IMG/VR virus record: IMGVR_UViG_3300031760_000013
Span: 66,458 to 112,934 of that record
Direction: 5' to 3' (one strand)
Origin: a virus
Lineage: Duplodnaviria > Heunggongvirae > Uroviricota > Caudoviricetes
DNA length: 46,477 nt
This document shows, one piece after another, positions 20,501 to 43,862 of this stretch (positions are counted from its first letter, which is position 1; every line of letters begins with the position of its first letter). The position numbers and the translations under genes were made by a program. The notes beneath the pieces were generated by a model. It was not told where the DNA came from. It made no database searches and worked only from the letters and a program-made list of their open reading frames with translations.

Positions 20501-20537
20501 CATGCTCAAGGCTTTTAATACATTAAATAATAAATGA
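14592..20537 (+). CDS. Tail tape measure protein
   Basis: 1981 aa, Ala-rich helical; TP901-type core (IELDSAMTQLRIVT...SKSSTGLRTIAARI); ASG...LVNELGPELI C-terminal motif. Confidence 0.92.
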   Translation: MAGIIGHVGIGLDKGATTAEFSQLQGIVAGEVAKLKPVTLKLDVAGTTKEFGELSKVIKEVASNINKINMANIGGGDAEQAQKARERAQAYKEVTREFQRLQHYQQSAAKLDTGKDPFGMENAVKKLDEYRQKFNEVFNANKNKLSSSQIDDLNYKYRVLNETLDEIKAKQTDKALAQVNAAAAKEQAQALKEQAQAQREAAAAEKERSGGLSDLENRILSMVSLTAILTASIRQMKQMVNTTIELDSAMTQLRIVTNNSEAEYAAYGSQVAKTAQEIGASMTDIVDSTTVFSRLGYSLSESSELSRLTAMLHNVGDIDVSSAQNALTAITKAFADAGSDIELAMDKVVTVGNSFPISVAELAEGMNNAGSALAAAGNSFDQSIALLTAANVTVQNVSKSSTGLRTIAARIRKTTTELNDLGEVVNEAKYQQVIDLLTGNGVRLTENGEYRATYDILKDIADIWDRLSSMDQAAIAEQLAGNRQQNVFYSIIGQFREAEEAMVAMQNSQGAMAAANDEFMNSIQAHINSFQSAYQQLASTVIDSDVTKNIVDFGTAAINVLTKVFELLDKIGGALPIISGIASSFLASIGGKVGSKLLDITGLTKTIDAVKGVVDAAGGLKALGGKGLLDAILGNLGSSAKFGATVAAMTALASLVMHLATMPTGLDAAVQKSEELAEKLDSVSDKYTENENRILELSVAKSSGNWTVQQQMEMDNLIAENVLIETQIELLRQRNEAAQESKEKEAVELADELLGGSSKSGHSRSLTDAAENYQRAVKSGNGFARNFWSNYLTTGLDKAGQALQNLDPQKHASKIEALNAAIAEVNATLGATAKTAIAADDVVSQLMEYGQGGNVDLLARPVIEAATLAEAGWKEAGEGIATVFSSTFSNADGTLAANFTPIIVGENGKAVGVMTPDTLQSYAEDVINGVHGDFLNLQIGASFNGEDAIERADEAAEKIHELHAEFYDGADAQSMDGMLIFDRVRDKAAEAKDAISKMWDSDDFADQRNELIELAHTADGITAESIETLASKNASLKAVMDETGISAQFLAQILSREALHGDGFDLITEKALRVDAALLEIENRCAGATAALEQFNKAAAGDNADVANSYTQAYKQFLEDWEGGRTGSNTVDAAVNLFFSPDQLESMGYDLQAAGEALSSSFYQAIFSTEGDPGANFATYIRSHYTDALKEVVDITENADGTFDIAISSAEELANALASIDGSEGLDVNAVNAFIEAMGAWGVHLFATGAELENLANELDLVGNKASSLQEISDIIDTLAARGDSGTKISATLQALEDAGYIDTSGIDTSGLDQLEQKISEAVAKYKELNDQDTELRVTDNIDDVKSRLEALIGTKIPDKYFTVHEIHKVEGGTDASASGTKNSPGGPTLVNELGPELISENGHAYIANGGQPGIVNLSKGAIVLDTHTTRNALGGLGLNGTIGAMSSGSRATFPTNYNPGGGGGGGGSSSKSSSSSSSSNSSSTKKEKTWFEQQYDYHKHLVEMDQELQSDFLDWLDEAYKKAYAEGIIDLEEYMQREEEVYKGRQDQFKDYISDLDYAIDMAKRAGANSEDVANMYQKMLDEINRALEIAFARGLDENDDYVQYLQNQWYNYYDNLKEAREDAQDDAMDAVDDLVQYRIKMLKQYIKNEVDALKERLSNLKDFYSKQKDLLKDVADTEDYLDEQAEKRKSVTDIESQLAMLDLDNSAWAQKRKAKLKEELADAQKELNKFERDHAIEVASDQLDAAYEVQERAINARIDELNDLADNPKALYDRALADVRNNSVALYEEMIEFNNKYGDGIKETVVDMWEQAYISLKNYAELYHEFYNGINLVNATGYQPGTEGNVGGNYIARNPGGSAIKVAGAMPAEVSDSGTASPYSDLDPAVQAQIEAAQAAMQAQLDAVMNNIQAATNNLLDQVTANTQATLSNLTSNYALSGVNMGDIIIQGNATMDTVSEIRRAQRDNISNMLKAFNTLNNK

Positions 20538-21581: not shown

Positions 21582-24500
21582 TTGATCGCCAGATTTAACA
21601 GCTATCGGGAATTTGAAACGCCGATGCTGTATGTGTGCGCACCGGGCTGCAAGTATGTGGACGGTATGCTCACGAACACATCGGGTATCCTGACAGATGT
21701 TAGTGATATTGAAATTATTCCAACTTTCAATGCCACTTCTGAACTGAACTTCAGGTGCTATAGAGTTCATCGCGAAGACGCAGAAGAGAATTCTCATTTC
21801 TACAGTTTATTCCGTTCTCTGCGAAATAGACGGATGATCTATGTTGAAGACATTGGGTTCTTCGTTATAACGAATGTGGAAGATGGATACGATCTGAATA
21901 TCGGCACAGACTATAAGGACATCTCCTGTGAGTCTTGTGAAGAGGAACTTCGGTCTAAGAATATTCCATACATCGAGGACGGTACCTACAAGTTCTTTAC
22001 TGGAGAAGAAGGGAATCCTGGCATGCTTGAGACTCTCGTGCAGTCTACTCCCCTCTGGTATATTGGGGATGTCGACACGGAGGTTGCAAACAGATACAGG
22101 ACGTTCGAGGATATTGATTTTACGGACAATGTCCTTGGGTTTATGTTGGAAGATCTACAGAATGCGTATGAATGCATTTTTGTTTTTGATATCCAAAACA
22201 GAATAATCAACGTGTACGATCAGGCAAACTACGTACACGAAACAAACATTCATCTGACTAGAGACGATCTGATTACAAGCATCAGCGTGTCCGAATCGTC
22301 AGATGATCTTTATACCGCACTCAGTGTGACAGGCGAAGACGAGCTTAGTATTAATGCCGTCAATCCGCTTGGCACGAATGTTATTTATAACTTTGACTAC
22401 TATCTTGACTGGATGACTCCGAGCCTACGTGAGAAAGTGGAAGAGTGGCAGGATCTTGTCGCATCTTATAGCGATCAGTATTATAACCTGCAGATGGCGA
22501 GATATTCAGGTCTTACTTCCCTATCGACTCTTAATGCGGAGTACGACCAGCTTAATACACAGTTGACGATGTACAAACGCTGTAGAGAAAATATGGTTGC
22601 ACAGGCTAGTGACGAGCAGATTGCTGAGTACAATGCGGTTATCACTTCGGTTGGCGGTACGCCAATTCCTGAAGATAAAGGGTATCTGTGGATCATGTTT
22701 GGCGATGATGCATCTGGTACAAACATTACGACCAATCCATATGGGAAACGTTATATTGGTCTTGCTTGGGATAAAGGTACAAATGTTGCCAGTAATAGCG
22801 CTTCTGATTATACATGGTTTACATTCAGAAGTGGCGAAAGCTTCCCGAGGCAGAAGAACGGTACGACGCTATATACATGGATTGTGTTCGCAGACTCTGT
22901 TACGTCAGGAATGTCGAATGAACCGGAAGATGTAGCATCGTCTTCTGCAAAGCCATATATTGGCATTTCAGTAGATAACAGTTCTAGCCAAAAATCATCT
23001 ACGTATGATGACTATACTTGGTCTCTCACGAACGTTGGTGGAATCAGCGTTAGTGAGGCATTAGGTACAATCGACGAATTAGTCAAGCAGACTGAGGCTG
23101 CCCTTACGGCAAAGGCTGCTGAAATTGCCGAAGGTGATGAGTATATAGACACGAGCGAAGCGAGTGTAATAAACATACAGAACGCCGTTTCCATGCAGAA
23201 TTTCTTTACCGAAGAAGAGCTTGAAGAACTTAGCAACTATATTGTTGAAGGCTCATACTCCGACGACTATATAGGTATTACGGACACTATGTCTTACAAC
23301 GAGATCTTTGAGCAAATGAAGACGCTGTATGACCGTGCGGTTGCGCAGCTGGAGACTGTATCTGTACCGACACAGCAGTTCACTATCGATGTTGAGAACT
23401 TCATATTCGTGAAGGAGTTCGAGCAGTGGAGTGATCAGCTTGAGACTGGTTGCCTAATTAATGTTGAACTGATGGAAGGCGATGTCGCCCAGTTGTTCCT
23501 TACTTCCTTTGAAGTTAACTATGAAGACAAGAAACTATCGATGACGTTCGGTAATCGGTATAATCGGTTTGATTCAAAGGCATTATTCGATAAGTTCCTT
23601 GGTAATGTATCCAAAACACAGAACACGCTTTCTTATATTCGTAGCACGATTTATCCGATTAAGAACGGTGAGTTCAATCAGATGAAAGAGGCTCTTGAGA
23701 CTTCTCGTACTCTTACGAAAAACGCCGCTCTTTCTTCAACAAATGAACAGGTCACGATTGATGACACTGGCTATACTGGTCGCAGAGTTTTACCTGACGG
23801 CACGATCGACCCACATCAGATTAAGATCAATGGTAGGAACATCGTGTTCACAGATGACGCATGGAAGACATGTAAGACGGCAATTGGCGAAATCATTCTT
23901 GGCTCTGGCGAATCTAAATATGGTATCAACGCCGAGATTATTCTTGGCAATATGATATATGGTAACGAGCTGCATATTATTGATAAAGATGGCAATGATA
24001 TGTTCGAAGTTACGGAAGACAAGATAATGTTGAGCGTCGGTGATATTTACGCCGAGAAGGAAGATACTATATCTGGTGTTGACGTGATGTACTGTCGTGC
24101 ATCATCTAGTATAGCATGTAATATTAGCACGATGACGACACAGTGGAGTACAGCTGCGCCCGGATGGGTCGATGGTGAATATATCTGGCAGAAGACCGTT
24201 ACGACATATGACGATGGTCATACATCTGAATCCACAGCGACATGTCTGACAGGCGCGACTGGTCAGTCTGGTAGAGGTATCGCTTCTACGGTTATCAAGT
24301 ACGCCCGCTCATCCGACGGTGTTAATCACCCGACGGCAGAGAGCGACTGGTATTCTGATATCCCAGATTACGTCGAAGGCGACTTTGTTTGGACGCGCAC
24401 AGTTATCACATATACTGATAACTCTACTTCAACATCATACTCCGTTGGGAGAAACGGTGTAAATGGTGATCATAATGCAGTCGTATATCTATATAAGAGA

Positions 24501-27500
24501 TCTCCTTCGCAGGTGTCTATCGACTGGACGACGCAGGTCGCGTATGACTTCCAGTTACATACACTCGCCCCTGTGCCTAGTGGTTGGAGCACGACGATCC
24601 CCGCTGGTGTTGATACTCTGTATGTGACGGCTGCGACAGCAAGCTCGAATACGCAAACGGATATCATTGAATATACTGAGTGGTCTACGCCTGTGGCGAT
24701 GGCTCGAAGTGGTGCAAATTCTGCAACAGTTCTCTTATACAAGAGATCTGCTGATGTGCCAGAAATACCTACGACAGAACTCACCTACACATTTGCAGAT
24801 GGTTCATTAGACCTCTCCCCTCTTAGTATAACTGGGCATACGGTGGTCGCTGACGACAACACAGTGGAGAATCTCTTCTACGTGAATAACGAAGTGCTGC
24901 GTTTGACATCTGCGATTACTGGCACTGGATATACATATCAGTGGTACTACAAGACACCGTCCAGTTCATCTTATTCTGCCGCTACTTCTACATCAGCAAC
25001 AGCGCCGACGTATACGATAACAGCGCAGAGCCGACATGATGGTTACCAGTATTATTGCAGAGTAACTGATACATACGGTAATAGCACAAGCACAAGGGTA
25101 GTCAGAATCAATCTTGGGAAATGGTCTCAGCATATTCCTGCATCTGACGGCAATCCGTGTTATGTGATTCAGGCGACTGCGATAGGGTTGGACGCGACGG
25201 ATGATATAACTGGAGCCGAGTGGAGCACTGTGACAGAACTTGTCACAGATGGTGTTGGTATCAGCGGAACGAGCATTACATACGTTACTTCCACAAATGG
25301 ATCTACGCCGCCAGCAGCTACAGCGGATTGGTCTACAACCTTCCCTGGTGAGTTAGAAGAGGGAGAATACCTCTGGACGAAGACCGTCACAACCTATACG
25401 GACGGGACTGATTCAACGGTATACTCCGTTAGTCGCAATGGTGTGATGGGACAGGACGGTGAGGCTGGACGTGGTATTACACACGTATCAAACAGATACG
25501 CTGTTTCTACGAGTAGCAGTACTGCGCCGAATGTGTGGGTGGATTCACCGCCTACTCTCACTGCAACAAATAAATATCTCTGGAATTATGAGATTATCAC
25601 ATACACAGATAATACATCTGATGAGACGGAGCGCCGCATTATTGGCGTATACGGCGATCAGGGTGTTACTGGTAATGGTATTAACAAAATAACTGAGTAT
25701 TACCTCGCATCGGCAGCAGACAGCGGTGTGACGACATCCACTAGTGGGTGGACTACAACTGTCCAGGCTGTAACTGGTGCAAAGAAGTATCTCTGGAATT
25801 ATGAAGTAGTTGAATATACAAACGGCAACTCATTCACGAGTACTCCGGCTATTATTGGTATGTTCAGCAACAGTATCGTGTCGTCATCTGTAGTGTATAC
25901 GACATCCGATAACGGCACTAATGTTCCAACGTCCGGTTGGCAGAACTCTGTACCAAGCGTAGCGGCTGGCAGATACTTGTGGACTCGTACAACTACGAAC
26001 TATGCGTACGGCGATCCAACGGTATCTTATTCCGTGAGCCGTAGTGCTACGAACGGTAATCATACTGCGGTTGTGTACCTATATAAGAGATCCTCATCCG
26101 CAGCGACGATAAACTGGACTAGCAATCTTACATATAACTTTACGACAAACAGCTTAACATCTGTACCGTCTGGGTGGTCTGCCACTGTTCCAACTGGTAC
26201 TGACCCGATCTACATGACAGCAGCAACAGCAAGTTCAAACGGTGACACTGACACGATCGCTTATACAGAATTCGCGGCTCCTGTTATGATTGCGCAGAAT
26301 GGCACTAACGGTTCGGATGGTGCAGATGGTTCTAACGCCGCAACGATTTTCTTATATCAGAGAGCGGCAAGCTCATCTTCATTGTCCAAACCTACTGCAA
26401 CTCTCACATATACGTTCAGTACCGGCACGCTATCTGGCACTCTTGGAAACTGGTCTCAGGCAATACCGGCAAACGACGGCAATCCGTGCTTTGTGATACA
26501 GGCAACTGCTGTAAGCGCTGGTACAACTGATACTATATCTTCGTCTGAATGGAGCAGTATCAGAGAACTGGTAGCCAATGGCGAAGACGGTGTCGGTGTA
26601 TCTGGAACAGAGATTGCTTATGCAACTTCAACTAGCGGTACTACACCGCCGAGTTCTGGATGGGGTTCATCCGTCCCAACTGTTTCTGAGGGGCAGTATC
26701 TGTGGACTCGCACAACTACGAACTACACGAACAGCGAACATTCTACATCTTATTCTGTAAGCCGTAATGGTATGAACGGTACGAATGGTACAAACGGTAA
26801 ACATAGTGCAGTCGTATATCTCTACAAGAGATCTGCGACAGCTGCCACTATAGACTGGAACACTGATCTCCCATATAGTTTTACATCCAATGCGCTTACG
26901 GCACTGCCGAGTGGCTGGAGCCTTTCTGTCCCAACTGGACTGAATCCGATTTATGTTACAGCGGCTACTGTCAGCTCTGCTGCTGATACCGCAACAATAC
27001 CGTATACAGCATGGGCTACACCGGCGATGCTTGCCCAAAATGGTGAGGCTGGCGCAGCAGGTAGTAACGGCTCTGATGGTTTAAGCACGGCAATTGTATT
27101 CTTGTACAAAAGAGCTGCAAATTCTAGTGCTGTAACGAAACCGTCTGTCGACTTGGATTATACATTCTCGACTGGTGTTCTGTCTGGCAATCTGAACGGA
27201 TGGTCGCAGAGCATACCTTCTACTGATGGTAATCCGTGTTTTGTGATACAGGCTACGGCTGTAGGTACTGGTGCGACGGACAGGATACTGACAACAGAAT
27301 GGAGCGACATTGCAGAGCTTGTTGTCGACGGGGACGGCGTTGGTGTTGAGAGCGCTGTAATTGCATACGCAACATCGAACGACGGAACCAATCCACCTAC
27401 TGATGATTGGTCTGATATCATACCGTCTGACATCGGCGAAAAGAAATTTATGTGGACTCGAACCACAACGAACTATACAGATGGTTCGCAAACAGTAGCA

Positions 27501-30149
27501 TACTCTGTAAGCTCAAGTGGTGTCGGCATTGCCGAGATTGTGACAGAATATTATCTGTCAACTTCAAACACAGAGCTGCTCGCTGGTGAGTGGTCTGATA
27601 CCCCACCAGCTTGGACGAGTGGTACATATATCTGGACGCGCAGCCACTTATACTGGGACAATGGCGACGAAAGCACCACGACTCCAGTATTGGATAATTC
27701 GTTGAATCAAATCAACGCAGATATCTATGACTGCCAAACAGATATAGAAGTCAACAAGCAAGGTATTCAGCAGAACACTCAATACTATCAGGAACTGTAT
27801 GGGCAGGTTGCTAAGATCAATGCCTATATTCAGACTGGTGTTATTGGTGTTGACGAAACTGGTAAATCATCTTTCGGTGTTAAGATCGGCGAAAATCTTT
27901 CGACGGTAAGCGCCTATATTATTAATGGGTCTGTCGCCTTCTCTGAAGGTTGGCTTTCTTCGACGGATGGTGGAGTACCGCTCTCCCCTGATGAGTCTGT
28001 GCTTTATCAGATCCAGACACCGGGTACCTATTATGGAAAGACATATAGGTGGAACGGTTCAACGTACTCTGAGGCAGAATCCGAAGGAACGCTATCTTCG
28101 ATTTTCACGTCGAGCGAACTTGGGTTCTATGACACTGGTGAGAAGACGGCGTATTTCTCAAACAAGAATCTGAACGTCACTACGGTCAGAACGACACGTA
28201 TTCTTTTCAGCCAAGACGTTATTTCAGACACATCTTCCAATAACTGGCAGATCGGCATCGATAACGGGTTCTATCTGAAATGGGTTGGTGCAGCCGATGG
28301 TAGTAGCGGTGGCGACGATACAGAGGAAGATACTGCGTCCACCTTTACAGCAACATCGCCTGTTACTAATAACACCGACGCCTGCACAATCACTATCACA
28401 AGGGCTAAGAATACATATATCCACTCCTTGCAGTATTCGACCGATGGGTCTAACTGGACTACCATCACTGCGTCGACTACAGGTGAAAGTGCAATTTCAT
28501 GGACGCCGAATCTCACATTTAGTGGTAGCGCAACAAGTATTTCTTGTACTGTGCGTTGCATAACATATAAAGGTAGCGTCACTGCAAGCAACCTTGTCGG
28601 TAGTTACGATAGAATTGTTGTTGTTAACAAGGAAGGTCAAGTCGTTGCACCGACAATAACTTCGCATCCGAGTAATGTGACAGCTGCGCCTAATACAACA
28701 GTCACATATGGTGTCATAGCAAATGGTAGTGACCTAACATATAACTGGCAGTTTGAACTGAGTAATGTTAGTGGGTACGTTAACATGAGTGGATACACAA
28801 GTGTCTACACCGACTGCTATTCTGGGTATGATACAGCGACTTTGACGATAACAGACACAACATATTTCAATGGCGTTAACTTCAGATGCGTTGTGACTAA
28901 CAGCGCTGGTTCTGTAATAAGTAATTCTGCTTCACTTACAATCCAAGAAACTGTCACAGCGCCAACAATCACATCACATCCATCTGACGCGTCGGTGCAG
29001 GAAAATGTAGACGCTTTGTTCTCTGTAACAGCGTCTGGTACGAGTCTCAGTTACCAGTGGCAGTCAGCAAGCAGTAGTTCTGGCACGTTCTCGAACGTTA
29101 CAAATCTTACTGGGTATAATACTGCGAGCCTTACCGTACCTGGCACGTCAACATATAACGGATATGCGTTCAGATGTGTTGTGTCGAACAGTGCTGGGTC
29201 TGTAACTAGTAATTCTGCTACGTTAGATGTTCAAGCTGCTCAGGCAGTACCACAAATAACGGTACAACCACAGTCAACGACAGTATATACCGGGGAACAG
29301 GCAACATTCTCTTTAACGGCAACAGGAGACAATCTATCTTACACGTGGTACATGAGAACAAGCTATAGAGTCGCGTGGGCTGAAATGGGGAGCGGATATA
29401 AAACAGCGTCTATTACATTGACTGCCGGCGATACTGAGACTAATAATGCTGCTAATGGATATCAATACCGTTGCACAGTATCTAATAGCGTAGCATCTGT
29501 TAATAGCGATATTGTTACGTTGACAGTTAAAACCAGCAGGTTGCCATTAGGGTACCATGAAGTAGAATACCTTGAGTCAACTGCTGGCGGTGGGCAATAT
29601 ATACAGACTGGTATAACTTCATTTAACTCTACAGATGAAATAGACATCGCATTTATGTACTTTGCTATTCCTGCTGCAGGGAATCAGAACGTTATCAGTA
29701 TAGCTGGTACAGGGGATGCTCAGCACTATATGCGAATACCCGCAATTAATGATAACTACAATGCATATATCATAAGTGATTCTGATTCTCTTGTATCAAC
29801 GCCACAGGCAAACAAACGTTTTGATGCCGTTATCAATAATTCAAGTCACAAAGTTCTTGAAAACAATACTGACCTTGGAACATTAACGAGTTATACAGGT
29901 GATTTCTGGTACAGTTATCAGATAACACTGTTCGGAATATCGAATACGGCAGGAACACTGAGCGGGACAGGGTCACGTTGCAGGATTTATTCGTTTGTTC
30001 ACAAGAATAATAGCACAAATAGGTATTTGCGCAATTACGTCCCATGCTATCGCACATCTGATAATGAGCCTGGTTTCTATGATCTTGTTAATAACACATT
30101 CATTACAAACGCTGGTGATGGTACATTTGTTGTCGGACCTGAGGTGTAA
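21582..30149 (+). CDS. Giant mosaic tail protein (Tal/hub + internal repeats + four Ig-like domains + C-terminal lectin-like domain)
   Basis: 2855 aa after Dit; repeated YLYKRS and YLWTRT..NY modules; Ig-like modules with YQW and Y.C.V motifs; C-terminal LPLGYHEVEYLEST...YIQTG...FYDLVNNTF domain. Confidence 0.85.
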   Translation: MIARFNSYREFETPMLYVCAPGCKYVDGMLTNTSGILTDVSDIEIIPTFNATSELNFRCYRVHREDAEENSHFYSLFRSLRNRRMIYVEDIGFFVITNVEDGYDLNIGTDYKDISCESCEEELRSKNIPYIEDGTYKFFTGEEGNPGMLETLVQSTPLWYIGDVDTEVANRYRTFEDIDFTDNVLGFMLEDLQNAYECIFVFDIQNRIINVYDQANYVHETNIHLTRDDLITSISVSESSDDLYTALSVTGEDELSINAVNPLGTNVIYNFDYYLDWMTPSLREKVEEWQDLVASYSDQYYNLQMARYSGLTSLSTLNAEYDQLNTQLTMYKRCRENMVAQASDEQIAEYNAVITSVGGTPIPEDKGYLWIMFGDDASGTNITTNPYGKRYIGLAWDKGTNVASNSASDYTWFTFRSGESFPRQKNGTTLYTWIVFADSVTSGMSNEPEDVASSSAKPYIGISVDNSSSQKSSTYDDYTWSLTNVGGISVSEALGTIDELVKQTEAALTAKAAEIAEGDEYIDTSEASVINIQNAVSMQNFFTEEELEELSNYIVEGSYSDDYIGITDTMSYNEIFEQMKTLYDRAVAQLETVSVPTQQFTIDVENFIFVKEFEQWSDQLETGCLINVELMEGDVAQLFLTSFEVNYEDKKLSMTFGNRYNRFDSKALFDKFLGNVSKTQNTLSYIRSTIYPIKNGEFNQMKEALETSRTLTKNAALSSTNEQVTIDDTGYTGRRVLPDGTIDPHQIKINGRNIVFTDDAWKTCKTAIGEIILGSGESKYGINAEIILGNMIYGNELHIIDKDGNDMFEVTEDKIMLSVGDIYAEKEDTISGVDVMYCRASSSIACNISTMTTQWSTAAPGWVDGEYIWQKTVTTYDDGHTSESTATCLTGATGQSGRGIASTVIKYARSSDGVNHPTAESDWYSDIPDYVEGDFVWTRTVITYTDNSTSTSYSVGRNGVNGDHNAVVYLYKRSPSQVSIDWTTQVAYDFQLHTLAPVPSGWSTTIPAGVDTLYVTAATASSNTQTDIIEYTEWSTPVAMARSGANSATVLLYKRSADVPEIPTTELTYTFADGSLDLSPLSITGHTVVADDNTVENLFYVNNEVLRLTSAITGTGYTYQWYYKTPSSSSYSAATSTSATAPTYTITAQSRHDGYQYYCRVTDTYGNSTSTRVVRINLGKWSQHIPASDGNPCYVIQATAIGLDATDDITGAEWSTVTELVTDGVGISGTSITYVTSTNGSTPPAATADWSTTFPGELEEGEYLWTKTVTTYTDGTDSTVYSVSRNGVMGQDGEAGRGITHVSNRYAVSTSSSTAPNVWVDSPPTLTATNKYLWNYEIITYTDNTSDETERRIIGVYGDQGVTGNGINKITEYYLASAADSGVTTSTSGWTTTVQAVTGAKKYLWNYEVVEYTNGNSFTSTPAIIGMFSNSIVSSSVVYTTSDNGTNVPTSGWQNSVPSVAAGRYLWTRTTTNYAYGDPTVSYSVSRSATNGNHTAVVYLYKRSSSAATINWTSNLTYNFTTNSLTSVPSGWSATVPTGTDPIYMTAATASSNGDTDTIAYTEFAAPVMIAQNGTNGSDGADGSNAATIFLYQRAASSSSLSKPTATLTYTFSTGTLSGTLGNWSQAIPANDGNPCFVIQATAVSAGTTDTISSSEWSSIRELVANGEDGVGVSGTEIAYATSTSGTTPPSSGWGSSVPTVSEGQYLWTRTTTNYTNSEHSTSYSVSRNGMNGTNGTNGKHSAVVYLYKRSATAATIDWNTDLPYSFTSNALTALPSGWSLSVPTGLNPIYVTAATVSSAADTATIPYTAWATPAMLAQNGEAGAAGSNGSDGLSTAIVFLYKRAANSSAVTKPSVDLDYTFSTGVLSGNLNGWSQSIPSTDGNPCFVIQATAVGTGATDRILTTEWSDIAELVVDGDGVGVESAVIAYATSNDGTNPPTDDWSDIIPSDIGEKKFMWTRTTTNYTDGSQTVAYSVSSSGVGIAEIVTEYYLSTSNTELLAGEWSDTPPAWTSGTYIWTRSHLYWDNGDESTTTPVLDNSLNQINADIYDCQTDIEVNKQGIQQNTQYYQELYGQVAKINAYIQTGVIGVDETGKSSFGVKIGENLSTVSAYIINGSVAFSEGWLSSTDGGVPLSPDESVLYQIQTPGTYYGKTYRWNGSTYSEAESEGTLSSIFTSSELGFYDTGEKTAYFSNKNLNVTTVRTTRILFSQDVISDTSSNNWQIGIDNGFYLKWVGAADGSSGGDDTEEDTASTFTATSPVTNNTDACTITITRAKNTYIHSLQYSTDGSNWTTITASTTGESAISWTPNLTFSGSATSISCTVRCITYKGSVTASNLVGSYDRIVVVNKEGQVVAPTITSHPSNVTAAPNTTVTYGVIANGSDLTYNWQFELSNVSGYVNMSGYTSVYTDCYSGYDTATLTITDTTYFNGVNFRCVVTNSAGSVISNSASLTIQETVTAPTITSHPSDASVQENVDALFSVTASGTSLSYQWQSASSSSGTFSNVTNLTGYNTASLTVPGTSTYNGYAFRCVVSNSAGSVTSNSATLDVQAAQAVPQITVQPQSTTVYTGEQATFSLTATGDNLSYTWYMRTSYRVAWAEMGSGYKTASITLTAGDTETNNAANGYQYRCTVSNSVASVNSDIVTLTVKTSRLPLGYHEVEYLESTAGGGQYIQTGITSFNSTDEIDIAFMYFAIPAAGNQNVISIAGTGDAQHYMRIPAINDNYNAYIISDSDSLVSTPQANKRFDAVINNSSHKVLENNTDLGTLTSYTGDFWYSYQITLFGISNTAGTLSGTGSRCRIYSFVHKNNSTNRYLRNYVPCYRTSDNEPGFYDLVNNTFITNAGDGTFVVGPEV

Positions 30150-34587: not shown

Positions 34588-36021
34588 ATGGCATTAATTG
34601 GTAATCCTATTGTAGCGTCACAGCCTGTTGATGATGCTATATCTTCTACTAGCAAAAATCCAGTCCAGAATAAGACCGTCAAATCGGAACTGGACAAAAA
34701 GGTAAATAAGTCAGATATCGATACCACTCTATCTACTACTAGTACCAACACTGTTCAGAACAAAGTTGTTAAAGCTGGTATTGATAAAGTACAGGAGAAT
34801 CTTGATGACCTCGGCTTGTCCCCTGTTGAAGGTGCTCTAAATACAACATACGGTGATACAACAGCTGAAATTATTAAGGATTCTACTGGAAAGAAAATTG
34901 TAAGCGCACTCTATAAGATTGCTGGAGTTTATGATCTGAATGACTATCGCAGCATTACTCAGGCAGTTAGAAAGGGAGACGAAGCGAAGATCCCGTACGG
35001 TACTGTATTTACTGTGCCGCATAGCACTTATGGAAATATCGATTTTGTTGTACGCAGACGCGATGTTGATAAAGTTTATAACGACGCTGATCGCCCGACT
35101 CTTACTATCCAGACGAAGCATCTTCTTTCAAACAATGGCGGTTCTTCTGTAGCAACGTTCCAGTATGATCGCCCTGAAGCATTCGCAAGCGTTGAAACTG
35201 AAATCTCCGCTGGCACTGTAGTTCAGTTTACTACAATCGCATATGGTGGCTGGGTAGCTGGTACATTCCACTTCACTGCGACTGACGCAATCCCTGTTGG
35301 CGCGAAGCTTTGTATCAGCGGTGTTCAGAGCACAGCACTCGACCAGTTGAATGTACAGGTATTTACCGATGCTAAGCAGACAACCGCATCTGCTGCTTAC
35401 GCTATCGCATCTGGGGTTGGAGACGCTACTGTTGATCTCGGCACATGGGGCACCGACCTCAATCATCCGCAGCGCGTTTCTTATGGCTCTAACAATGAAG
35501 CAGAGTCTAATGTGTTCCAGTTCCTGAATGGTATTGGGCTCATGTCCGATATTTGGACACCGATGACAAAATACGACATGATGAGCACAACTTATACTAC
35601 GCTGAATGGATTCCTTGGTGGGTTTGACGAAGAGTTTAGGCAGTGCCTTGGCCTCGCAACGATTAACAATATCAGTAACAACGTGTTTGAGTCTCAGGAT
35701 TCTCCTTACGAGAAGAATGCGGCATATACACACCGTGGCTATTTCTGGCTGCCTTCTCGTATGGAGATCTACGGCACTCTGGAGAATAATAACGAGAATG
35801 CAGAGACGCAGTTCCCGTATTTCGAGGAAATCGGTATTACAGACTCGGACAAGCTTATGTATGCAAAAGGCGCAACATCCCCGACATCGTACTGGCTCCG
35901 GACCCCGACCGCGGGTAGCAGTGGCTATGTGCGTCTTTGCCTCACGGGGTACGGCGGCGGCCTGTACAGCAACTATGCCAGCTATAGCTACGGCCTCTCG
36001 CCGCTTGCGATTTTGGCGTAA
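34588..36021 (+). CDS. DGR target protein 1 (putative receptor-binding/tail fibre; C-terminal CLec/DUF6273-like domain)
   Basis: N-terminal D..S.TS.N.VQNK repeats; C-terminal YWLRTP...GLSPLAILA carrying VR1. Confidence 0.85.
   Translation: MALIGNPIVASQPVDDAISSTSKNPVQNKTVKSELDKKVNKSDIDTTLSTTSTNTVQNKVVKAGIDKVQENLDDLGLSPVEGALNTTYGDTTAEIIKDSTGKKIVSALYKIAGVYDLNDYRSITQAVRKGDEAKIPYGTVFTVPHSTYGNIDFVVRRRDVDKVYNDADRPTLTIQTKHLLSNNGGSSVATFQYDRPEAFASVETEISAGTVVQFTTIAYGGWVAGTFHFTATDAIPVGAKLCISGVQSTALDQLNVQVFTDAKQTTASAAYAIASGVGDATVDLGTWGTDLNHPQRVSYGSNNEAESNVFQFLNGIGLMSDIWTPMTKYDMMSTTYTTLNGFLGGFDEEFRQCLGLATINNISNNVFESQDSPYEKNAAYTHRGYFWLPSRMEIYGTLENNNENAETQFPYFEEIGITDSDKLMYAKGATSPTSYWLRTPTAGSSGYVRLCLTGYGGGLYSNYASYSYGLSPLAILA
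35896..36003 (+). repeat. DGR variable repeat VR1
   Basis: 108 nt colinear with TR; 16 mismatches, all at TR adenines. Confidence 0.97.
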
Positions 36022-36166: not shown

Positions 36167-37348
36167 ATGAGCAAAATTACTGATCCTGTACTGCTCGACT
36201 CTACCGGGCAGGAAATAGAATTTGCGCTTAGACAGATCGCTGGTCAGTACGATACAACTGATTATAGAAGTATTGTTTCAGCGGTGCGTCGTGGCGATGC
36301 AAACAAGATCCCAAATGGTGTGACATTCACTGTCCCGCATAACTATTATGGAGATATCGACTTCGTTGTACGTAGGAAGGGCGTGGATAAGGTGGCAAGC
36401 GAGCCTGATCGTCCTACAATCACCATCCAGACTAAGTATCTTCTTTCTAGAAACGCCGGGTCTTCCGCCGCCACATTCCAGTATGACAGAGGTGAAGCAC
36501 TGGCATATGTAGATACAGCCATTCCAGCCGGAACAGTTGTTAAATTCTCTATTGGAGCTAAATCTGGTAACTGGCTTGCTGGCGATTACCACTTTACAGC
36601 AACCAACGCTATTGCTGCCGGAAAGAAGCTCAGTATTTCTAGCACAAACTACGATAATACTAATTTGGAAGACCTTGATATCATTGTTTACACTGATAGC
36701 AAAGGTACGGCAACGGAGGCCACTTACGCAATTGAAGCCGGTGACGGCGATGCAACAGTTAATCTTGGTACTACTGGTACAGAATTGAATCTGCCCGGAA
36801 GAATGCGCTATGGATCTAATAACGCTGGCGAAGCGAATGTCCATCAGTTCCTTAATGCTATTGGGACCGTTTCCGATTCTTGGGAGCCACTCTCCAAGTT
36901 TGACCTCATGCCTTCTGGGTATACTTCTCTTGCTGGATTCCTTGGTGGGTTTGATGAGGAATTCAGGTCTTGCCTTGGCTTGGCACGTGTCCACGATATT
37001 GCAAATGATATATTTGAGGCACCAGGTTCTACGGCAACAATTAGTACTGAGTACTACCACAACGCATATTTCTGGCTCCCGTCTCGTAAGGAGATTTATG
37101 GCTCGAATGAGAATGCCCGCGAAGCATCCGAAACACAGTTTGAATATTTTGCCGAGCTTGGGACGACCAACTCGGATAAGCTTATGTATGCGAAAGGCGC
37201 AACATCCCCGACCTCGTACTGGCTCCGGACCCCGAACGCGGGTAGCAGTTCCACTGTGCGTAATTGCTACACGGGGGTCGGCGGCGGCCTGCACGACGTC
37301 ACTGCCTCCAATAGCTCCGGCCTCTCGCCGCTTGCGATTTTGGCGTAA
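36167..37348 (+). CDS. DGR target protein 2 (paralog of target 1)
   Basis: Shares DYRSI..AVR.GD..KIP.G..FTVPH..YG.IDFVVRR through YWLRTP...GLSPLAILA with target 1; carries VR2. Confidence 0.85.
   Translation: MSKITDPVLLDSTGQEIEFALRQIAGQYDTTDYRSIVSAVRRGDANKIPNGVTFTVPHNYYGDIDFVVRRKGVDKVASEPDRPTITIQTKYLLSRNAGSSAATFQYDRGEALAYVDTAIPAGTVVKFSIGAKSGNWLAGDYHFTATNAIAAGKKLSISSTNYDNTNLEDLDIIVYTDSKGTATEATYAIEAGDGDATVNLGTTGTELNLPGRMRYGSNNAGEANVHQFLNAIGTVSDSWEPLSKFDLMPSGYTSLAGFLGGFDEEFRSCLGLARVHDIANDIFEAPGSTATISTEYYHNAYFWLPSRKEIYGSNENAREASETQFEYFAELGTTNSDKLMYAKGATSPTSYWLRTPNAGSSSTVRNCYTGVGGGLHDVTASNSSGLSPLAILA
37223..37330 (+). repeat. DGR variable repeat VR2
   Basis: 108 nt colinear with TR; 16 mismatches, all at TR adenines, a different set from VR1. 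Confidence 0.97.
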
Positions 37349-37895: not shown

Positions 37896-37948
37896 TAATA
37901 TTTGGGAGGCGACTACATATGACGCCGTCTAGTGGTGTCGTTGTTGCG

Positions 37949-38056
37949 CTCCGGACCCCGAACGCGGGTAACAGTAACAATGTGCGTAATTGCAACACGG
38001 GGAACGGCGGCGGCCTGAACAACAACAATGCCAACAATAGCAACGGCCTCTCGCCG
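37949..38056 (+). ncRNA. DGR template repeat (TR), part of the DGR RNA
   Basis: CTCCGGACCCCGAACGCGGGTAACAGTAACAAT...AACGGCCTCTCGCCG; 14 AAY triplets; non-coding position between avd and RT. Confidence 0.95.
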
Positions 38057-38228
38057 ATTGGGGACTAGTGCGATTCTAGTACCGACTTTTTGTTGAGAAA
38101 GCAGTGCTACCTCCAAGGAGTTACCTTCCAGTCTCACATTACGATGTGAGCAAACAGGCTAAAGACGCGGATGTCTTACGAGATGCGCCGCTATCGGCTT
38201 TAGCGAATTCTTTAATTAAGGATAATTT

Positions 38229-39296
38229 ATGGATCACGATTACTTTGATGAGGCTTTTACATATGCAAATATGAGAAGCGCTTTAAATAAGTGTTGCCGC
38301 AATGTAAGGTGGAAAGATTCTGTTGTAGGTTATGAATTACATGCGGCACAGAATACTTTAAAGCTTATGAAACAAATTAAAAATGGTACGTACAAGATTA
38401 GTGAGTATCAAAGATTTATAATCAATGAACCAAAGCGGAGAGAAATCGTCGCAACACGTATTGCAGACCGACAAGTTCAAATGGCACTGTGCACTGCAGG
38501 GTTATATGAGGATTTTGTCGAGCATTTTATAGCTGATAATTGTGCTTGCCAGAAGGGTAAAGGCACAGACTATACGTTGCAGCGTATTAAGAAACATCTA
38601 TGCAGACATTATCATGATCATGGGAAAGATGGTTTGGTTCTTAAAATGGACGTACATCATTTCTTCCCATCAACAAGACATGATGTTGCAAAAGCTGCTG
38701 TAAGAAAACGCATCAGTGATGAGCGAGCGTGCCAGATGGTTTGTGATGTCATCGATAGTTTTGGCGGCGATGCTGGTATCGGTCTTGGTTCACAAATTTC
38801 GCAGTTAGTTGAGCTTTCCGTATTAGATGATCTTGACCATTTTATAAAAGAACGTCTCCGGATCAAACACTATGTGCGGTATATGGATGACCTTGTTTTA
38901 ATACACGAGGATAAAGAATATCTGAAATATTGTTGGGATGAGATAGGGAAACAGCTTAATGCAATTGGGCTTGAGCTAAATAAGAAAACATCTCTATACC
39001 CGTTAAAACAAGGTGTGAAGTTTCTGCAGTGGAGATTCGTTTTGACCAATTCAGGTAAAGTCATAATGAAGATGAGCAATAAAAAGATGGGCAGACAACG
39101 TAGAAAGATCAAGAAAATATTATTTAAAGAAGAGACTGGTGAATACGCTATCGGTACTGCGTTCACCAGCCTAACTGCGTGGTGCGCAAATGCTAAACGT
39201 GGAGACGCATATTTTCAGCAGAAGCGCATGAAACACTATTATTACACAGTAAAGGCAGGTATTGAAAATGGTAAACGAAAAAGAAAGACTGCTTAA
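38229..39296 (+). CDS. DGR reverse transcriptase
   Basis: LKMDVHHFFPS, GIGLGSQISQ (DGR-type SQ motif), YVRYMDD catalytic motif, FLQW. Confidence 0.96.
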   Translation: MDHDYFDEAFTYANMRSALNKCCRNVRWKDSVVGYELHAAQNTLKLMKQIKNGTYKISEYQRFIINEPKRREIVATRIADRQVQMALCTAGLYEDFVEHFIADNCACQKGKGTDYTLQRIKKHLCRHYHDHGKDGLVLKMDVHHFFPSTRHDVAKAAVRKRISDERACQMVCDVIDSFGGDAGIGLGSQISQLVELSVLDDLDHFIKERLRIKHYVRYMDDLVLIHEDKEYLKYCWDEIGKQLNAIGLELNKKTSLYPLKQGVKFLQWRFVLTNSGKVIMKMSNKKMGRQRRKIKKILFKEETGEYAIGTAFTSLTAWCANAKRGDAYFQQKRMKHYYYTVKAGIENGKRKRKTA

Positions 39297-39580: not shown

Positions 39581-39759
39581 GTAAACCGAGCCCGTGTGAT
39601 AAATGTATCCACAGGCACATTCAACCATGTTCTCAATCTGAGTCGCAATACGACAATTGGCTCTATATTACGTTAAGGCGTATATGGGGCAGAGGAAAGA
39701 AAGAGACCGCTCAAACAATGGGCGGTCTCAACTATATTGAATTAAAGGAGGAAGTCTAA
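39577..39759 (+). CDS. Small hypothetical protein
   Basis: 60-aa ORF coupled to both neighbours; CDKC..C. Confidence 0.4.
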   Translation: MSKPSPCDKCIHRHIQPCSQSESQYDNWLYITLRRIWGRGKKETAQTMGGLNYIELKEEV

Positions 39760-40814
39760 TGACTAAAGTAGAACATTACGTTCTTGACGCGATTAACGTT
39801 GCCAATGATGATACTCATGGCTATAGCATGGCAAATAGGAACGGCGATCCCGACTATGATTGTTCCAGCCTTGTGTGTTTTGTTGTTGATCGGGCAGGGA
39901 TTCCTGTAAGAGCGGCAGGCGCTCACTATACTGGAGATATGCTGGATGCGTTTATAAAATGCGGATTTAAAAATATCATCGATAAAGTCAATATTAACAA
40001 TGGCGCAGGCATGAAACGCGGCGATGTACTTCTGAATCAGGCCGCACATGCAATGCTTTATATTGGCGACGGTCAGGTCGTAAACGCCGGAGGCGATAAC
40101 GGCCATCCGCAGCCTGGTGATCAGGGTGGCGAGATTAAAGTGCAGCCGTATTGGAACGGGAATTGGGATGCGGTTCTTCGTTACATGGGTACAGAGGAAT
40201 ACACTGGTACTGATGAACCTGAAGCACCTGAAGCTGAGCTTGCAGAAGGCATGGTTTATCCAAGGCCTGATGCTCCATGGGCGGCAGACAGCAATAACTT
40301 TGACTATCCAGAAATTCTGAAGTTCGGTGATGCTGGTACTGTTGTGCAGGAGATGCAGGCAAAGCTGAACGCTCTTGGCTATCCGTGCGGCAAAACCGAT
40401 GGCTACTATGGCGAGAAGACGCTTGAGGCTGTTACAAACTTCCAGACTCAGAAGGGCTGTCTGATCGATGGTGAGGCTGGCCCGGAAACTCTTGGTAAAC
40501 TTGCTGAATGCTACAAAGCACTGACTGGTAACGATGAAGCATTCTATGCCCAGTGGGAGAAACCTGTGAACGATCCAAAGACCGAGGCAAAGGAAAATGT
40601 TGCTGGATTCTACGCTGGTGAGAAAGTTGAGTTTATCGGCGGCAATGTATATCTTGTACCGAATGGTACTGTAAGCAAGACATACGAAGCTGGCGAAGCT
40701 AAGATCACTGCTCTGAATGCAAAGGCCAAACACCCGATTCACCTTGTGTTTGTGCGTGGCGCAGCCACTAAGGTGTACGGATGGGTTGATGTTGAAAGTC
40801 TGAAGAAGATCTAA
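39759..40814 (+). CDS. Endolysin (NlpC/P60-like amidase + PG_binding_1 + SH3-like domain)
   Basis: DYDCSS catalytic Cys, GDVLLN...HAMLYIG; V.EMQAKLNALGY...DGYYG..T..AV..FQ...DG.AGPET; C-terminal HPIHLV...VYGWVD. Confidence 0.88.
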   Translation: MTKVEHYVLDAINVANDDTHGYSMANRNGDPDYDCSSLVCFVVDRAGIPVRAAGAHYTGDMLDAFIKCGFKNIIDKVNINNGAGMKRGDVLLNQAAHAMLYIGDGQVVNAGGDNGHPQPGDQGGEIKVQPYWNGNWDAVLRYMGTEEYTGTDEPEAPEAELAEGMVYPRPDAPWAADSNNFDYPEILKFGDAGTVVQEMQAKLNALGYPCGKTDGYYGEKTLEAVTNFQTQKGCLIDGEAGPETLGKLAECYKALTGNDEAFYAQWEKPVNDPKTEAKENVAGFYAGEKVEFIGGNVYLVPNGTVSKTYEAGEAKITALNAKAKHPIHLVFVRGAATKVYGWVDVESLKKI

Positions 40815-41598: not shown

Positions 41599-41889
41599 AT
41601 GCAGATCGATCTTACACAGATCGCTTTGGGTATCATATCTCTACTTTCCACTATCATAACTGCTTATGTCATACCGCAGCTTCGTAATAAACGAATTCTC
41701 CGTCTGATTAGAATCGGCGTTAAAGCTGCAGAGAAGAAGTTTAATGAACCTGGTATGGGTGAAAAGAAGAACGAATACGTTAAAAAGTATCTCGCCAGCA
41801 AAGGGTATGCTCTGAGCATGGAAGAAGTAGACGTTATGATCGATAGCGTTCTGTTCGATATTGAACACGCTCTCCCAGAAGAAGACTAA
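41599..41889 (+). CDS. Holin (LL-H-like)
   Basis: One N-terminal TM followed by VKAAEK.F...GMGEKKNEYV...IDS pattern. Confidence 0.7.
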   Translation: MQIDLTQIALGIISLLSTIITAYVIPQLRNKRILRLIRIGVKAAEKKFNEPGMGEKKNEYVKKYLASKGYALSMEEVDVMIDSVLFDIEHALPEED

Positions 41890-42615: not shown

Positions 42616-42644
42616 TTGAAAGGGTGACGAAATATGGGTATAAT
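42616..42644 (+). promoter_or_regulatory. sigmaA/sigma70-type promoter
   Basis: TTGAAA (42616-21), 17-nt spacer, TATAAT (42639-44). Confidence 0.7.
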
Positions 42645-42666
42645 ATCTCCGGGTGAGATTTATACT

Positions 42667-43281
42667 GTGAGCACTATTATTACATGCTGCGGCATCAATT
42701 TCTGCATGATGGCTGCGGATAAAAGAAAAACTTTCCAGAACGGTGATGAGAGCATCGTGCTGGATGACAACACAGAAAAAATTTTCAGAGTCAACAACAA
42801 CATTTTATTTGGTGGCTCCGGTGTGTTCTGGGGCAACGAGAAAATTTATGAGCCTATCAAAGATCGTATGAATGATAGGCTCACTATAGTCGACGCCGTC
42901 AAGATGACGGAAGATTATATGTATAATAACTTGGCGTTCGTAAGGGCGCTCAAGCGGTATTACTTCATTTCTGGTAGAGACGATGACGGGATATATTATC
43001 TTGTTAGGGTGTGCCTGCGGGAAAAGGATAAATGCGTGCACACTGATTCGTTTGTGCCGATGAGGAAAGATCAGAAGGCGTATATGATCGCTCTGCCGAA
43101 ATCAATGGAGAGCGATGAGAACGCAACGAGGTTTAACCAGATGCTCGATAAGGCGGTTGGTAGCGCTGAGTCGTTGCCTGATCTTTACTTGGAGTGTGCA
43201 AAGATAATTCGAACTGTCGAGAAGGAAGACTCTAGTAAGTCTGTCGGCGACAGTATATCATTCCAGTCTATCCACGACTGA
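42667..43281 (+). CDS. Proteasome-beta/HslV-like Ntn-hydrolase-fold protein (204 aa)
   Basis: After Met removal S1-TIITCCGINFCMMAA-D17-K-R19-KT...EKIFRVNNNILFGGSG aligns by eye to the beta-subunit N-terminus; C-terminal EDSSKSVGDSISF; GGGTGA RBS 10 nt before GTG. Confidence 0.6.
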   Translation: MSTIITCCGINFCMMAADKRKTFQNGDESIVLDDNTEKIFRVNNNILFGGSGVFWGNEKIYEPIKDRMNDRLTIVDAVKMTEDYMYNNLAFVRALKRYYFISGRDDDGIYYLVRVCLREKDKCVHTDSFVPMRKDQKAYMIALPKSMESDENATRFNQMLDKAVGSAESLPDLYLECAKIIRTVEKEDSSKSVGDSISFQSIHD

Positions 43282-43289
43282 GGCTCGCC

Positions 43290-43457
43290 ATGCTTTACAG
43301 GTGTGACGATTATGGTTGCACTGTAGATGAGTTATTCCAGATAGTTAAGAATGACAAGGCGTGCAGACAACCAGATGATGATTCGACCGATATTATTATC
43401 GGTGGTATATTAGACACGAGCACTGGTGAAGTGTCTCAATTCTTTATTGAATGTTAA
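43290..43457 (+). CDS. Small acidic hypothetical protein (55 aa)
   Basis: MLYRCDDYGCTVDELFQIVKNDKACRQPDDDSTDIIIGGILDTSTGEVSQFFIEC*; GAGG RBS. Confidence 0.35.
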   Translation: MLYRCDDYGCTVDELFQIVKNDKACRQPDDDSTDIIIGGILDTSTGEVSQFFIEC

Positions 43458-43460
43458 GTT

Positions 43461-43494
43461 AAGCGTCCGGCTTCGTGCTGGGCGCTTTCTTTTT
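43461..43494 (+). terminator. Intrinsic terminator
   Basis: 11-bp stem AAGCGTCCGGC/GCTGGGCGCTT (two G-U) followed by TCTTTTT. Confidence 0.7.
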
Positions 43495-43658
43495 CTCCAG
43501 AATTTGTGAAAAAGAAGCCTCCCAGACTAAGCTGAGAGGCGTTTAGTTTCGTAAAGAAAAGTGCATAGTTTATATTACAAAGAGCGGGTTTGGTCGCTCT
43601 GATATCCAAACAAGTTATGTATAAGCAAGAGTACATATATGTCATAGCTCCTGCTCGT

Positions 43659-43757: not shown

Positions 43758-43802
43758 AGATTAGAGCAGATTTGGTTAGATTGCACTAGATTTGAGTAGA
43801 TT
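43758..43802 (+). repeat. Five AGATT pentamers at exact 10-bp period
   Basis: AGATT at 43758, 43768, 43778, 43788, 43798. Confidence 0.85.
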
Positions 43803-43814
43803 AGAAATGGGACG

Positions 43815-43862
43815 CTTGGTTCGGGACCAAGAGGCCTCGGGTTCAAATCCCGACACTCCGAC
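43815..43862 (+). other. attP core: 3' fragment of tRNA-Pro (anticodon CGG)
   Basis: Anticodon arm CTTGG-TTCGGGA-CCAAG, T-arm TCGGG-TTCAAAT-CCCGA, acceptor 3' strand CACTCCG; no 5' acceptor strand or D-arm upstream; next to the integrase 3' end. Confidence 0.85.

Follow-up and report, generated by a model that had tools for sequence, protein, structure and literature searches.

A putative proteasome-beta-like Ser1 hydrolase gene with its own promoter and terminator at the end of a temperate phage of gut Clostridia

The window analyzed in this work is a stretch of 46,477 nucleotides that forms the final 46.5 kb (positions 66,458 to 112,934) of the 112,934-bp IMG/VR virus record IMGVR_UViG_3300031760_000013, a temperate phage of gut Clostridia. 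Between the lysis genes and the integrase gene, the window contains a short unit composed of a promoter, a gene for a proteasome-beta-like protein, a small additional open reading frame (ORF) and a terminator. We consider it probable that this unit is a moron-type accessory gene for a propeptide-less, proteasome-beta-like N-terminal nucleophile (Ntn) hydrolase that employs a serine at position 1 (Ser1) and is equipped with its own promoter and terminator. The features of the unit are as follows:

42616 to 42644, + strand: sigma-70-type promoter, TTGAAA-17-TATAAT, 11/12 consensus matches
42634 to 42666, + strand: 12-codon extension MGIISPGEIYTV of the called ORF, in which the promoter -10 and the Shine-Dalgarno sequence are read as protein
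42652 to 42658, + strand: Shine-Dalgarno-like GGGTGAG, 9 nt before GTG 42667
42667 to 43281, + strand: coding sequence of the predicted proteasome-beta-like Ntn hydrolase from the proposed GTG, 204 codons plus stop
43290 to 43457, + strand: 55-aa Cys-containing ORF, a putative lineage-specific accessory
43461 to 43497, + strand: intrinsic terminator closing the unit, 11-bp stem (43461-43487) with 7 G-C pairs and a T run

The protein reads S-T-I-I-T-C-C-G-I-N-F-C-M-M-A-A-D17-K-R19 ... K37-IFRVNNNILFGGSG ... EDSSKSVGDSISF and would have 203 aa in its mature form, after removal of the methionine. Its key residues are Ser1 (S13 of the called ORF), D17, R19, K37 (corresponding to K33), G51 (G47) and D187 (D166). 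An earlier note, made from the sequence of the window alone, had proposed a fold of the proteasome-beta/HslV type with Ser at the nucleophile position, and this proposal is supported by Pfam, a family profile and structural comparison alike. The sequence features listed in that note were all found at the positions that it gives. The Pfam family PF00227 (Proteasome) was matched with 23.3 bits, against a cut-off of 22.4, over residues 13-64 only. An exhaustive HMMER search yielded 102 representative clusters of homologues, all of metagenomic origin, nearly all of approximately 200 aa and in no case joined to a further domain; 79 representatives could be aligned and are the basis of all conservation counts given here. 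PF00227 was matched by 41 of these 79 at E<=1e-3. The profile made from them matched 20S beta chains of the PDB with E = 1e-7, with D17, R19, K33 and G47 aligned and an S2-S3 hairpin that is 4 residues longer in the family, as well as archaeal alpha subunits with an E value of ~4e-4.

The AlphaFold2 model of the window protein (pLDDT 96.6, pTM 0.92) corresponds to a predicted four-layer alpha-beta-beta-alpha fold of the proteasome-beta Ntn type. In this model, the first sheet is followed by helices at 73-78, 85-98 and 100-105, the segment from residue 32 to 66 is built of strands alone, and no helix comes after the C-terminal strand (208-214). Foldseek returned 500 PDB matches at E<=1e-3, and all top matches were 20S beta subunits (E ~2e-9). 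The comparison with proteasome beta, HslV, Anbu, BPH and connectase, which the earlier note had suggested as a check of the fold, also identified an Ntn fold: VIA-align Z scores were 16.8-18.8 for 20S beta (rmsd 2.5-2.9 A over ~175 residues), 16.5 for Anbu, 14.9 for HslV, 13.2 for connectase and 12.7 for BPH, and other Ntn hydrolases, such as acid ceramidase and penicillin acylases, reached Z scores of 8-11. Residue 13 of the model aligned with residue 1 of the mature human beta, Anbu, HslV, BPH and connectase chains.

The active site is widely conserved in the family. Ser1 was found in 74/79 representatives, and Thr never occupied position 1. D17 and the G47 equivalent were present in all 79, and R19 and the K33 equivalent in 75 each. 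In the window protein, D17, R19, K33 (K37) and G47 (G51) are in place as had been predicted. The full core set together with a start-codon-compatible residue at position -1 was found in 71/79. All 15 aligned members of the 90% cluster to which the window protein belongs have kept S1, D17, R19, K37, G51 and D187.

The start of the gene has to be considered together with its promoter. The earlier note had recognized a near-consensus promoter that overlaps the called ATG 42634, and this element is indeed present, with the -35 TTGAAA at 42616-42621, the -10 TATAAT at 42639-42644 and ATG 42634 inside the 17-nt spacer. Promoters with at least 11/12 matches occur in ~0.3% of random 80-nt windows of the homologue loci, and weaker promoter-like sites were no more numerous in the region than in shuffled sequences. 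Transcription is predicted to start at ~42651, ~7 nt past the -10 and ~16 nt before GTG 42667, and the transcript would open with GGGTGAG. GTG 42667 is the first canonical in-frame start past this site, and the Ser codon comes next. Immediately before Ser1, 60 of the aligned representatives have M, 6 have V, 6 have L and 1 has I, amounting to 73/79 start-codon residues, and 24/79 proteins start exactly at this position (23 of them with M-S). The claim that the promoter's own transcript would be translated from GTG 42667 thus agrees with the preceding GGGTGAG, with the start-codon residues and with the comparison of loci described below.

The ~12-residue extensions called for other homologues look conserved at the protein level, following the pattern M-x-I-I-x-P-G/R-x-V-x-x-M. 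Within the extension of the window protein, G-I-I corresponds to ggTATAATa, the -10, and P-G-E to ccGGGTGAG, the Shine-Dalgarno sequence. In the following, L-numbers denote other loci that carry homologues, and P-numbers denote homologue proteins. The DNA at the II/TI/TM position of the extension was TATAAT, TATTAT (L004/L005) or TACAAT (L003 and L008, translated as T-M or T-I), and the purine-rich site of the homologues is translated as PKGA, TERV or NSGV, with GGG(G/T)G runs at the equivalent position in L003, L004, L005 and L008. Across the loci, the amino acids of the extension change non-conservatively, whereas the promoter hexamers stay consensus-like. A -35/17-nt/-10 element upstream of an M/V-Ser start was found in 8/8 independent loci (window, L002, L003, L004, L006, L007, L008 and L012) using a relaxed criterion, set after the data were seen, that 2% of random 80-nt windows satisfy. 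A TGn extended -10 was present in 6 of these 8 loci, and the distance between the -10 and the start was exactly 22 nt in four. A stop closes the upstream frame in L007, and the -10 lies in a different frame in L006. Since the amino acids vary while the DNA signals persist, and since all eight loci possess the promoter, the 12-residue "leader" appears to be a translated promoter and not a propeptide; in the window, MGIISPGEIYTV is most likely untranslated from the gene's own transcript. We conclude from these comparisons that the hydrolase family is apparently devoid of a propeptide and that the window gene would start at GTG 42667, in agreement with Fuchs et al., who found propeptides to be confined to 20S beta and HslV (PMC8665760).

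At the other end of the unit, the predicted terminator that closes it was borne out by the 11-bp stem and T run, with a folding energy of -20.2 kcal/mol for 43461-43487 (z = -4.9 versus shuffles). The 55-aa ORF that precedes it is present, as had been noted, but it is not a conserved part of the unit. The metagenomic locus L014 is 94% identical to the window and runs collinearly with it, interrupted only by a 157-bp gap (window 43288-43444 versus L014 6654-6655), which removes most of this ORF, leaving its last codons and the terminator, the latter directly 3' of the hydrolase gene. The absence of the ORF from L014 implies that it is not a required partner of the hydrolase. Its homologues form only two clusters of 80-89% identity that are confined to this phage lineage, and the ORF therefore appears to be a real-looking but dispensable, lineage-specific accessory. 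In an Acutalibacter contig (L006 6617-6772), a 51-aa Cys-rich ORF (C-x5-C-x2-C...C) follows the homologue and has no evident similarity to the 55-aa ORF of the window. A promoter and a terminator flank the gene in the window and in L002, and its insertion sites vary among loci; judged from this arrangement, the gene is probably a moron, namely, a promoter-gene-terminator cassette found at differing prophage positions.

The surroundings of the unit are consistent with its location near a prophage end. The window contains, in this order, a siphovirus-type structural module, a reverse-transcriptase cassette, an endolysin gene, a holin-like gene, small ORFs and the hydrolase gene, which is followed by a partial tRNA, a minus-strand tyrosine integrase gene and an HTH_17 excisionase-like gene. 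The neighboring features are:

39759 to 40814: endolysin
41599 to 41889: holin-like gene
43517 to 43540, - strand: convergent terminator-like hairpin facing the integrase side
43796 to 43854, + strand: partial tRNA-like sequence, candidate attP core, Rfam tRNA 27.5 bits
43952 to 45142, - strand: tyrosine integrase, Phage_integrase E = 6e-26, plus SAM-like N-terminal domains

The partial tRNA covers model positions 7-64 of 71, and its score lies below the gathering score of 29 bits. It comprises the anticodon arm, the T arm and the 3' acceptor strand, its anticodon loop contains CGG, which possibly corresponds to a Pro identity, and ARAGORN detected no complete tRNA at this site. It is separated by ~100 nt from the integrase gene and is likely the attP core, which supports the earlier placement of the gene beside attP and would put the hydrolase cassette at the outermost edge of the prophage in its integrated state. 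Proteins that are at least 90% identical to the window hydrolase are encoded on metagenomic contigs of 113-119 kb, indicating that this phage is recurrent and has a genome of ~113-119 kb. The window also harbors a diversity-generating retroelement, in which a 113-nt template repeat (37948-38060) precedes the reverse transcriptase gene (RVT_1, 38229-39296). Its variable repeats, 35895-36007 and 37222-37334, lie at the 3' ends of ORFs 34588-36021 and 36167-37348, and the mismatches between template and variable repeats are nearly confined to template adenines (AAC codons). The tail region of this ~113 kb phage contains two very large structural ORFs, at 21582-30149 (2855 aa) and 14592-20537 (1981 aa).

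Homologues were found in diverse genetic contexts. In L002, the homologue follows an Amidase_2 endolysin gene and has a 10/12 promoter and a strong terminator. Two independent phages carry it inside the tail module, just 3' of the tape measure gene: in L003 (2584-3231) it is located directly downstream of this gene, and in L004/L005 (5908-6600) it is flanked by a tape-measure-like gene and a Prophage_tail gene. The homologue of L007 adjoins SRAP and metallophosphatase genes at the border with host DNA. The downstream genes differed in every locus compared, and no conserved neighbor or partner gene was identified among them. A locus search with a family alignment provided 4 viral and 3 genomic loci, and no viral loci were found with P0001 alone as query. 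The genomic loci belong to Acutalibacter and to an Oscillospiraceae metagenome-assembled genome, plus a truncated copy on a Muribaculaceae-binned contig. The gene is rare, being present in 3/401 and 1/401 sampled Clostridial genomes (one order, one family), numbers that yielded no taxonomic pattern, and no homologue was detected in GenBank phages (blastn, and tblastn with P0001 and P0037) or in PLSDB plasmids (tblastn). The BFVD database contains other phage proteasome-fold proteins. A search of the 113-kb phage record identified no AAA or AAA_2 domain, as found in AAA+ ATPases such as HslU, whereas the positive controls were detected in 14/14 genomes, and the hydrolase could possibly be served by a partner ATPase of the host.

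Several observations weigh against the interpretation as a propeptide-less, catalytically active moron enzyme and have to be considered together with three other explanations. Searches of PHROGs, PADLOC and NCBIfam with the window protein gave no meaningful match. Only the promoters of the window and of L002 pass a stricter promoter scan. Furthermore, a separate GGGTGA precedes ATG 42634 by 6 nt, and there is no terminator between the lysis genes and the hydrolase gene; read-through transcripts from the lysis genes would include this ATG, which could serve as a start on them. Should translation begin there, MGIISPGEIYTV might be a genuine propeptide that the protein autocatalytically cleaves off at Val12|Ser13, in the manner of 20S beta and Gram-positive HslV. 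An extension of similar length is called for 55/79 homologues, AlphaFold placed residues 9-12 in a strand, and the short N-terminal sequence of S. aureus HslV was found to be cleaved, exposing Thr9 (PMC7468587). Nevertheless, a propeptide appears improbable given that 24/79 homologues lack the extension and that its conserved letters track the DNA signals (the -10 variants and the Shine-Dalgarno triplets PGE, PKGA, TERV and NSGV) and not protein chemistry. Gly is the residue typically found before proteasome cleavage sites, whereas a start-codon-type residue occupies position -1 in 73/79. The interrupted upstream frame of L007 and the differing frame of the -10 in L006 argue in the same direction, an open frame of 12 codons would arise by chance about half of the time, and propeptides have been reported only for 20S beta and HslV (PMC8665760).

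Other observations concern catalysis itself. The D166 equivalent, present in the window protein, was found in only 61/79 representatives. The earlier note had already stated that the GSG motif around S129 is not evident, rightly so: the region reads A-L-P, and a conserved L-P takes the place of the motif across the family (P in 76/79). The closest relatives have lost the nucleophile or R19/K33: P0004, which is 50% identical to the window protein, has Ala before Ser, neither R19 nor K33 and a 17-residue deletion of the S2-S3 hairpin, and P0005 and P0006 have Asn at position 1. Catalysis may thus be dispensable in this sub-branch, and these three full-length and otherwise conserved proteins may be pseudo-enzymes in sister phages. 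If this were extended to the window protein, it would be a scaffold or binder that has a proteasome fold but no catalytic activity and is retained for binding or assembly, and the best PDB sequence matches, the inactive beta subunits beta6, beta3 and beta7, would fit such a role. We consider this unlikely, to about the same degree as the propeptide, because the window protein and the 15 aligned members of its 90% cluster retain all key residues and because a catalytic set found in 71/79 representatives, with D17 and G47 invariant, is hard to explain without selection for catalysis. The least probable explanation is that of a connectase-like, sequence-specific transpeptidase or ligase, or of an anti-defense enzyme that removes or attaches protein modifiers. 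Connectase shares the fold, 4/79 relatives weakly match the connectase N-terminal Pfam model, and phage accessory genes often counter host immunity. The earlier suggestion of a connectase-like protein did not withstand the structural comparison: connectase is defined by the lack of helices H1/H2 and by a two-helix insertion between S3 and S4 (PMC8665760), while the model keeps H1/H2, has no helical S3/S4 insertion and obtained a lower Z score with connectase than with 20S beta, Anbu and HslV, and membership was hence rejected. As a weak further point, a constitutive-looking promoter at a prophage end is more in keeping with a gene expressed in the lysogen than with an early anti-defense gene. 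A last difficulty concerns function, as the orphan homologues Anbu and BPH are, to our knowledge, without established substrates, and the fold consequently does not predict the role.

Taken as a Ser1 hydrolase, the window protein can be placed among known proteasome homologues. Fuchs, Alva and Lupas reported in 2021 22 new proteasome-like subfamilies, including the phage-associated PPH, AAH and CPH, as well as five Firmicute-specific group II clusters, FC1-FC5, for which no function, propeptide or AAA+ partner is known (PMC8665760). The window family resembles these homologues in being small and stand-alone, with a Thr1/Ser1-D17-K33-G47 site, no propeptide, no AAA+ partner and a narrow, patchy distribution in Firmicutes and phages (PMC8665760). 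Group II proteins are, like the profile of the window family, similar to both beta and alpha subunits (PMC8665760). Because of this signature and its Firmicute origin, the window family, compared by description only, may coincide with an FC cluster; however, FC clusters have not been reported from phages (PMC8665760), whereas the window family is prophage-borne and has a conserved private promoter. PPH differs in having only ~140 aa and lacking H2 (PMC8665760). That phages and Firmicutes possess proteasome homologues was therefore known from the catalog of Fuchs et al. (PMC8665760), which assigns no functions to them; our analysis adds the anatomy of a prophage moron, a private promoter that is conserved, a corrected start and the strict use of Ser.

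The closest folds are those of 20S beta subunits (MEROPS T1A, PF00227), with which the family shares an R-x-Y...GG(K/R)D motif after H2 and an aligned C-terminal D-x-x-x-G motif. It differs from them by Ser, never Thr, at position 1, by the lack of a propeptide, by L-P instead of GSG(S129) and by the S2-S3 hairpin that is longer by 4 residues; in addition, the protein is phage-encoded, and the phage has neither an alpha subunit nor a regulatory ATPase. HslV/ClpQ, including the Gram-positive CodW and S. aureus HslV, are likewise bacterial, compact and proteasome-like, and residue 13 of the model corresponds to HslV residue 1. HslV of the E. coli type exposes its nucleophile by Met removal alone. 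In contrast, Gram-positive HslV has a cleaved N-terminal sequence (PMC7468587), and the window family appears to be without one. The window protein is larger than HslV and has longer helices, and profiles favor 20S subunits over HslV. HslV membership was rejected, as the phage record has no HslU-type AAA_2/AAA domain and the gene neighbors are lysis genes and the integrase. Anbu is defined by a long C-terminal helix, H5, that forms a coiled coil (PMC8665760); membership was rejected since the model ends in a strand without H5, and the high Z of 16.5 is common to all T1 members.

With regard to gene position, temperate phages of low-GC Gram-positive bacteria are known to carry morons or lysogenic-conversion genes in the interval that separates the lysis module from the attachment site. 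Like known morons, the window gene is single, is flanked by a promoter and a terminator of its own and is inserted at varied sites of prophages that are otherwise unrelated, and it adjoins attP and the integrase gene. The lysogenic-conversion examples that we are aware of encode toxins, exclusion or membrane proteins, and we know of no characterized precedent for a proteasome-fold enzyme in this slot.

The following sequence of events can be proposed for the hydrolase, with its chemical steps taken from established proteasome chemistry (Huber et al. 2016, as cited in PMC8665760). The cassette would have been inserted between the lysis module and attP/int of the ~113 kb temperate phage. The sigma-70 promoter would start the mRNA ~16 nt before GTG 42667, where translation would begin, and methionine aminopeptidase would remove the Met, exposing Ser1, which we infer to be the actual N-terminus. 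K33, held by D17, and the free alpha-amine would activate the Ser1 O-gamma for attack on a peptide or amide carbonyl, the backbone amide of G47 would stabilize the oxyanion, and the acyl-enzyme would be hydrolyzed last. The predicted enzyme of ~203 aa would act without a dedicated AAA+ unfoldase.

Both the location beside attP and the sigma-70 type of the promoter point to a gene that would be expressed in the lysogen. The role that we consider most likely, albeit with low confidence, is that of a peptidase made in the lysogen and active in conflicts between phage and host or among phages; it might degrade, for example, proteins of superinfecting phages or a regulator of the host. Slightly more speculative is the specific form of a prophage immunity enzyme, a constitutive, ATPase-independent serine peptidase that would cleave specific incoming-phage or cell proteins and thereby protect the lysogen or control the host. 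Our literature search retrieved no functional study of phage proteasome homologues.

Proteasome-like proteins beyond 20S and HslV are numerous, and almost none has been assigned a substrate or role. The family described here is a clean test case in this respect, consisting of a single gene with a private promoter, no apparent propeptide, no partner ATPase and an intact, Ser-only predicted active site, carried by temperate phages of gut Clostridia at a place that is plainly accessory. For such work, it is relevant that the majority of database entries for this family would carry a spurious leader of ~12 residues, and expressing that form would bury the nucleophile. Should the enzyme be active, this would mean that phages employ a proteasome fold for lysogenic conversion or in conflicts, and a function as an immunity enzyme, if true, would represent the first biological role for the orphan proteasome homologues.

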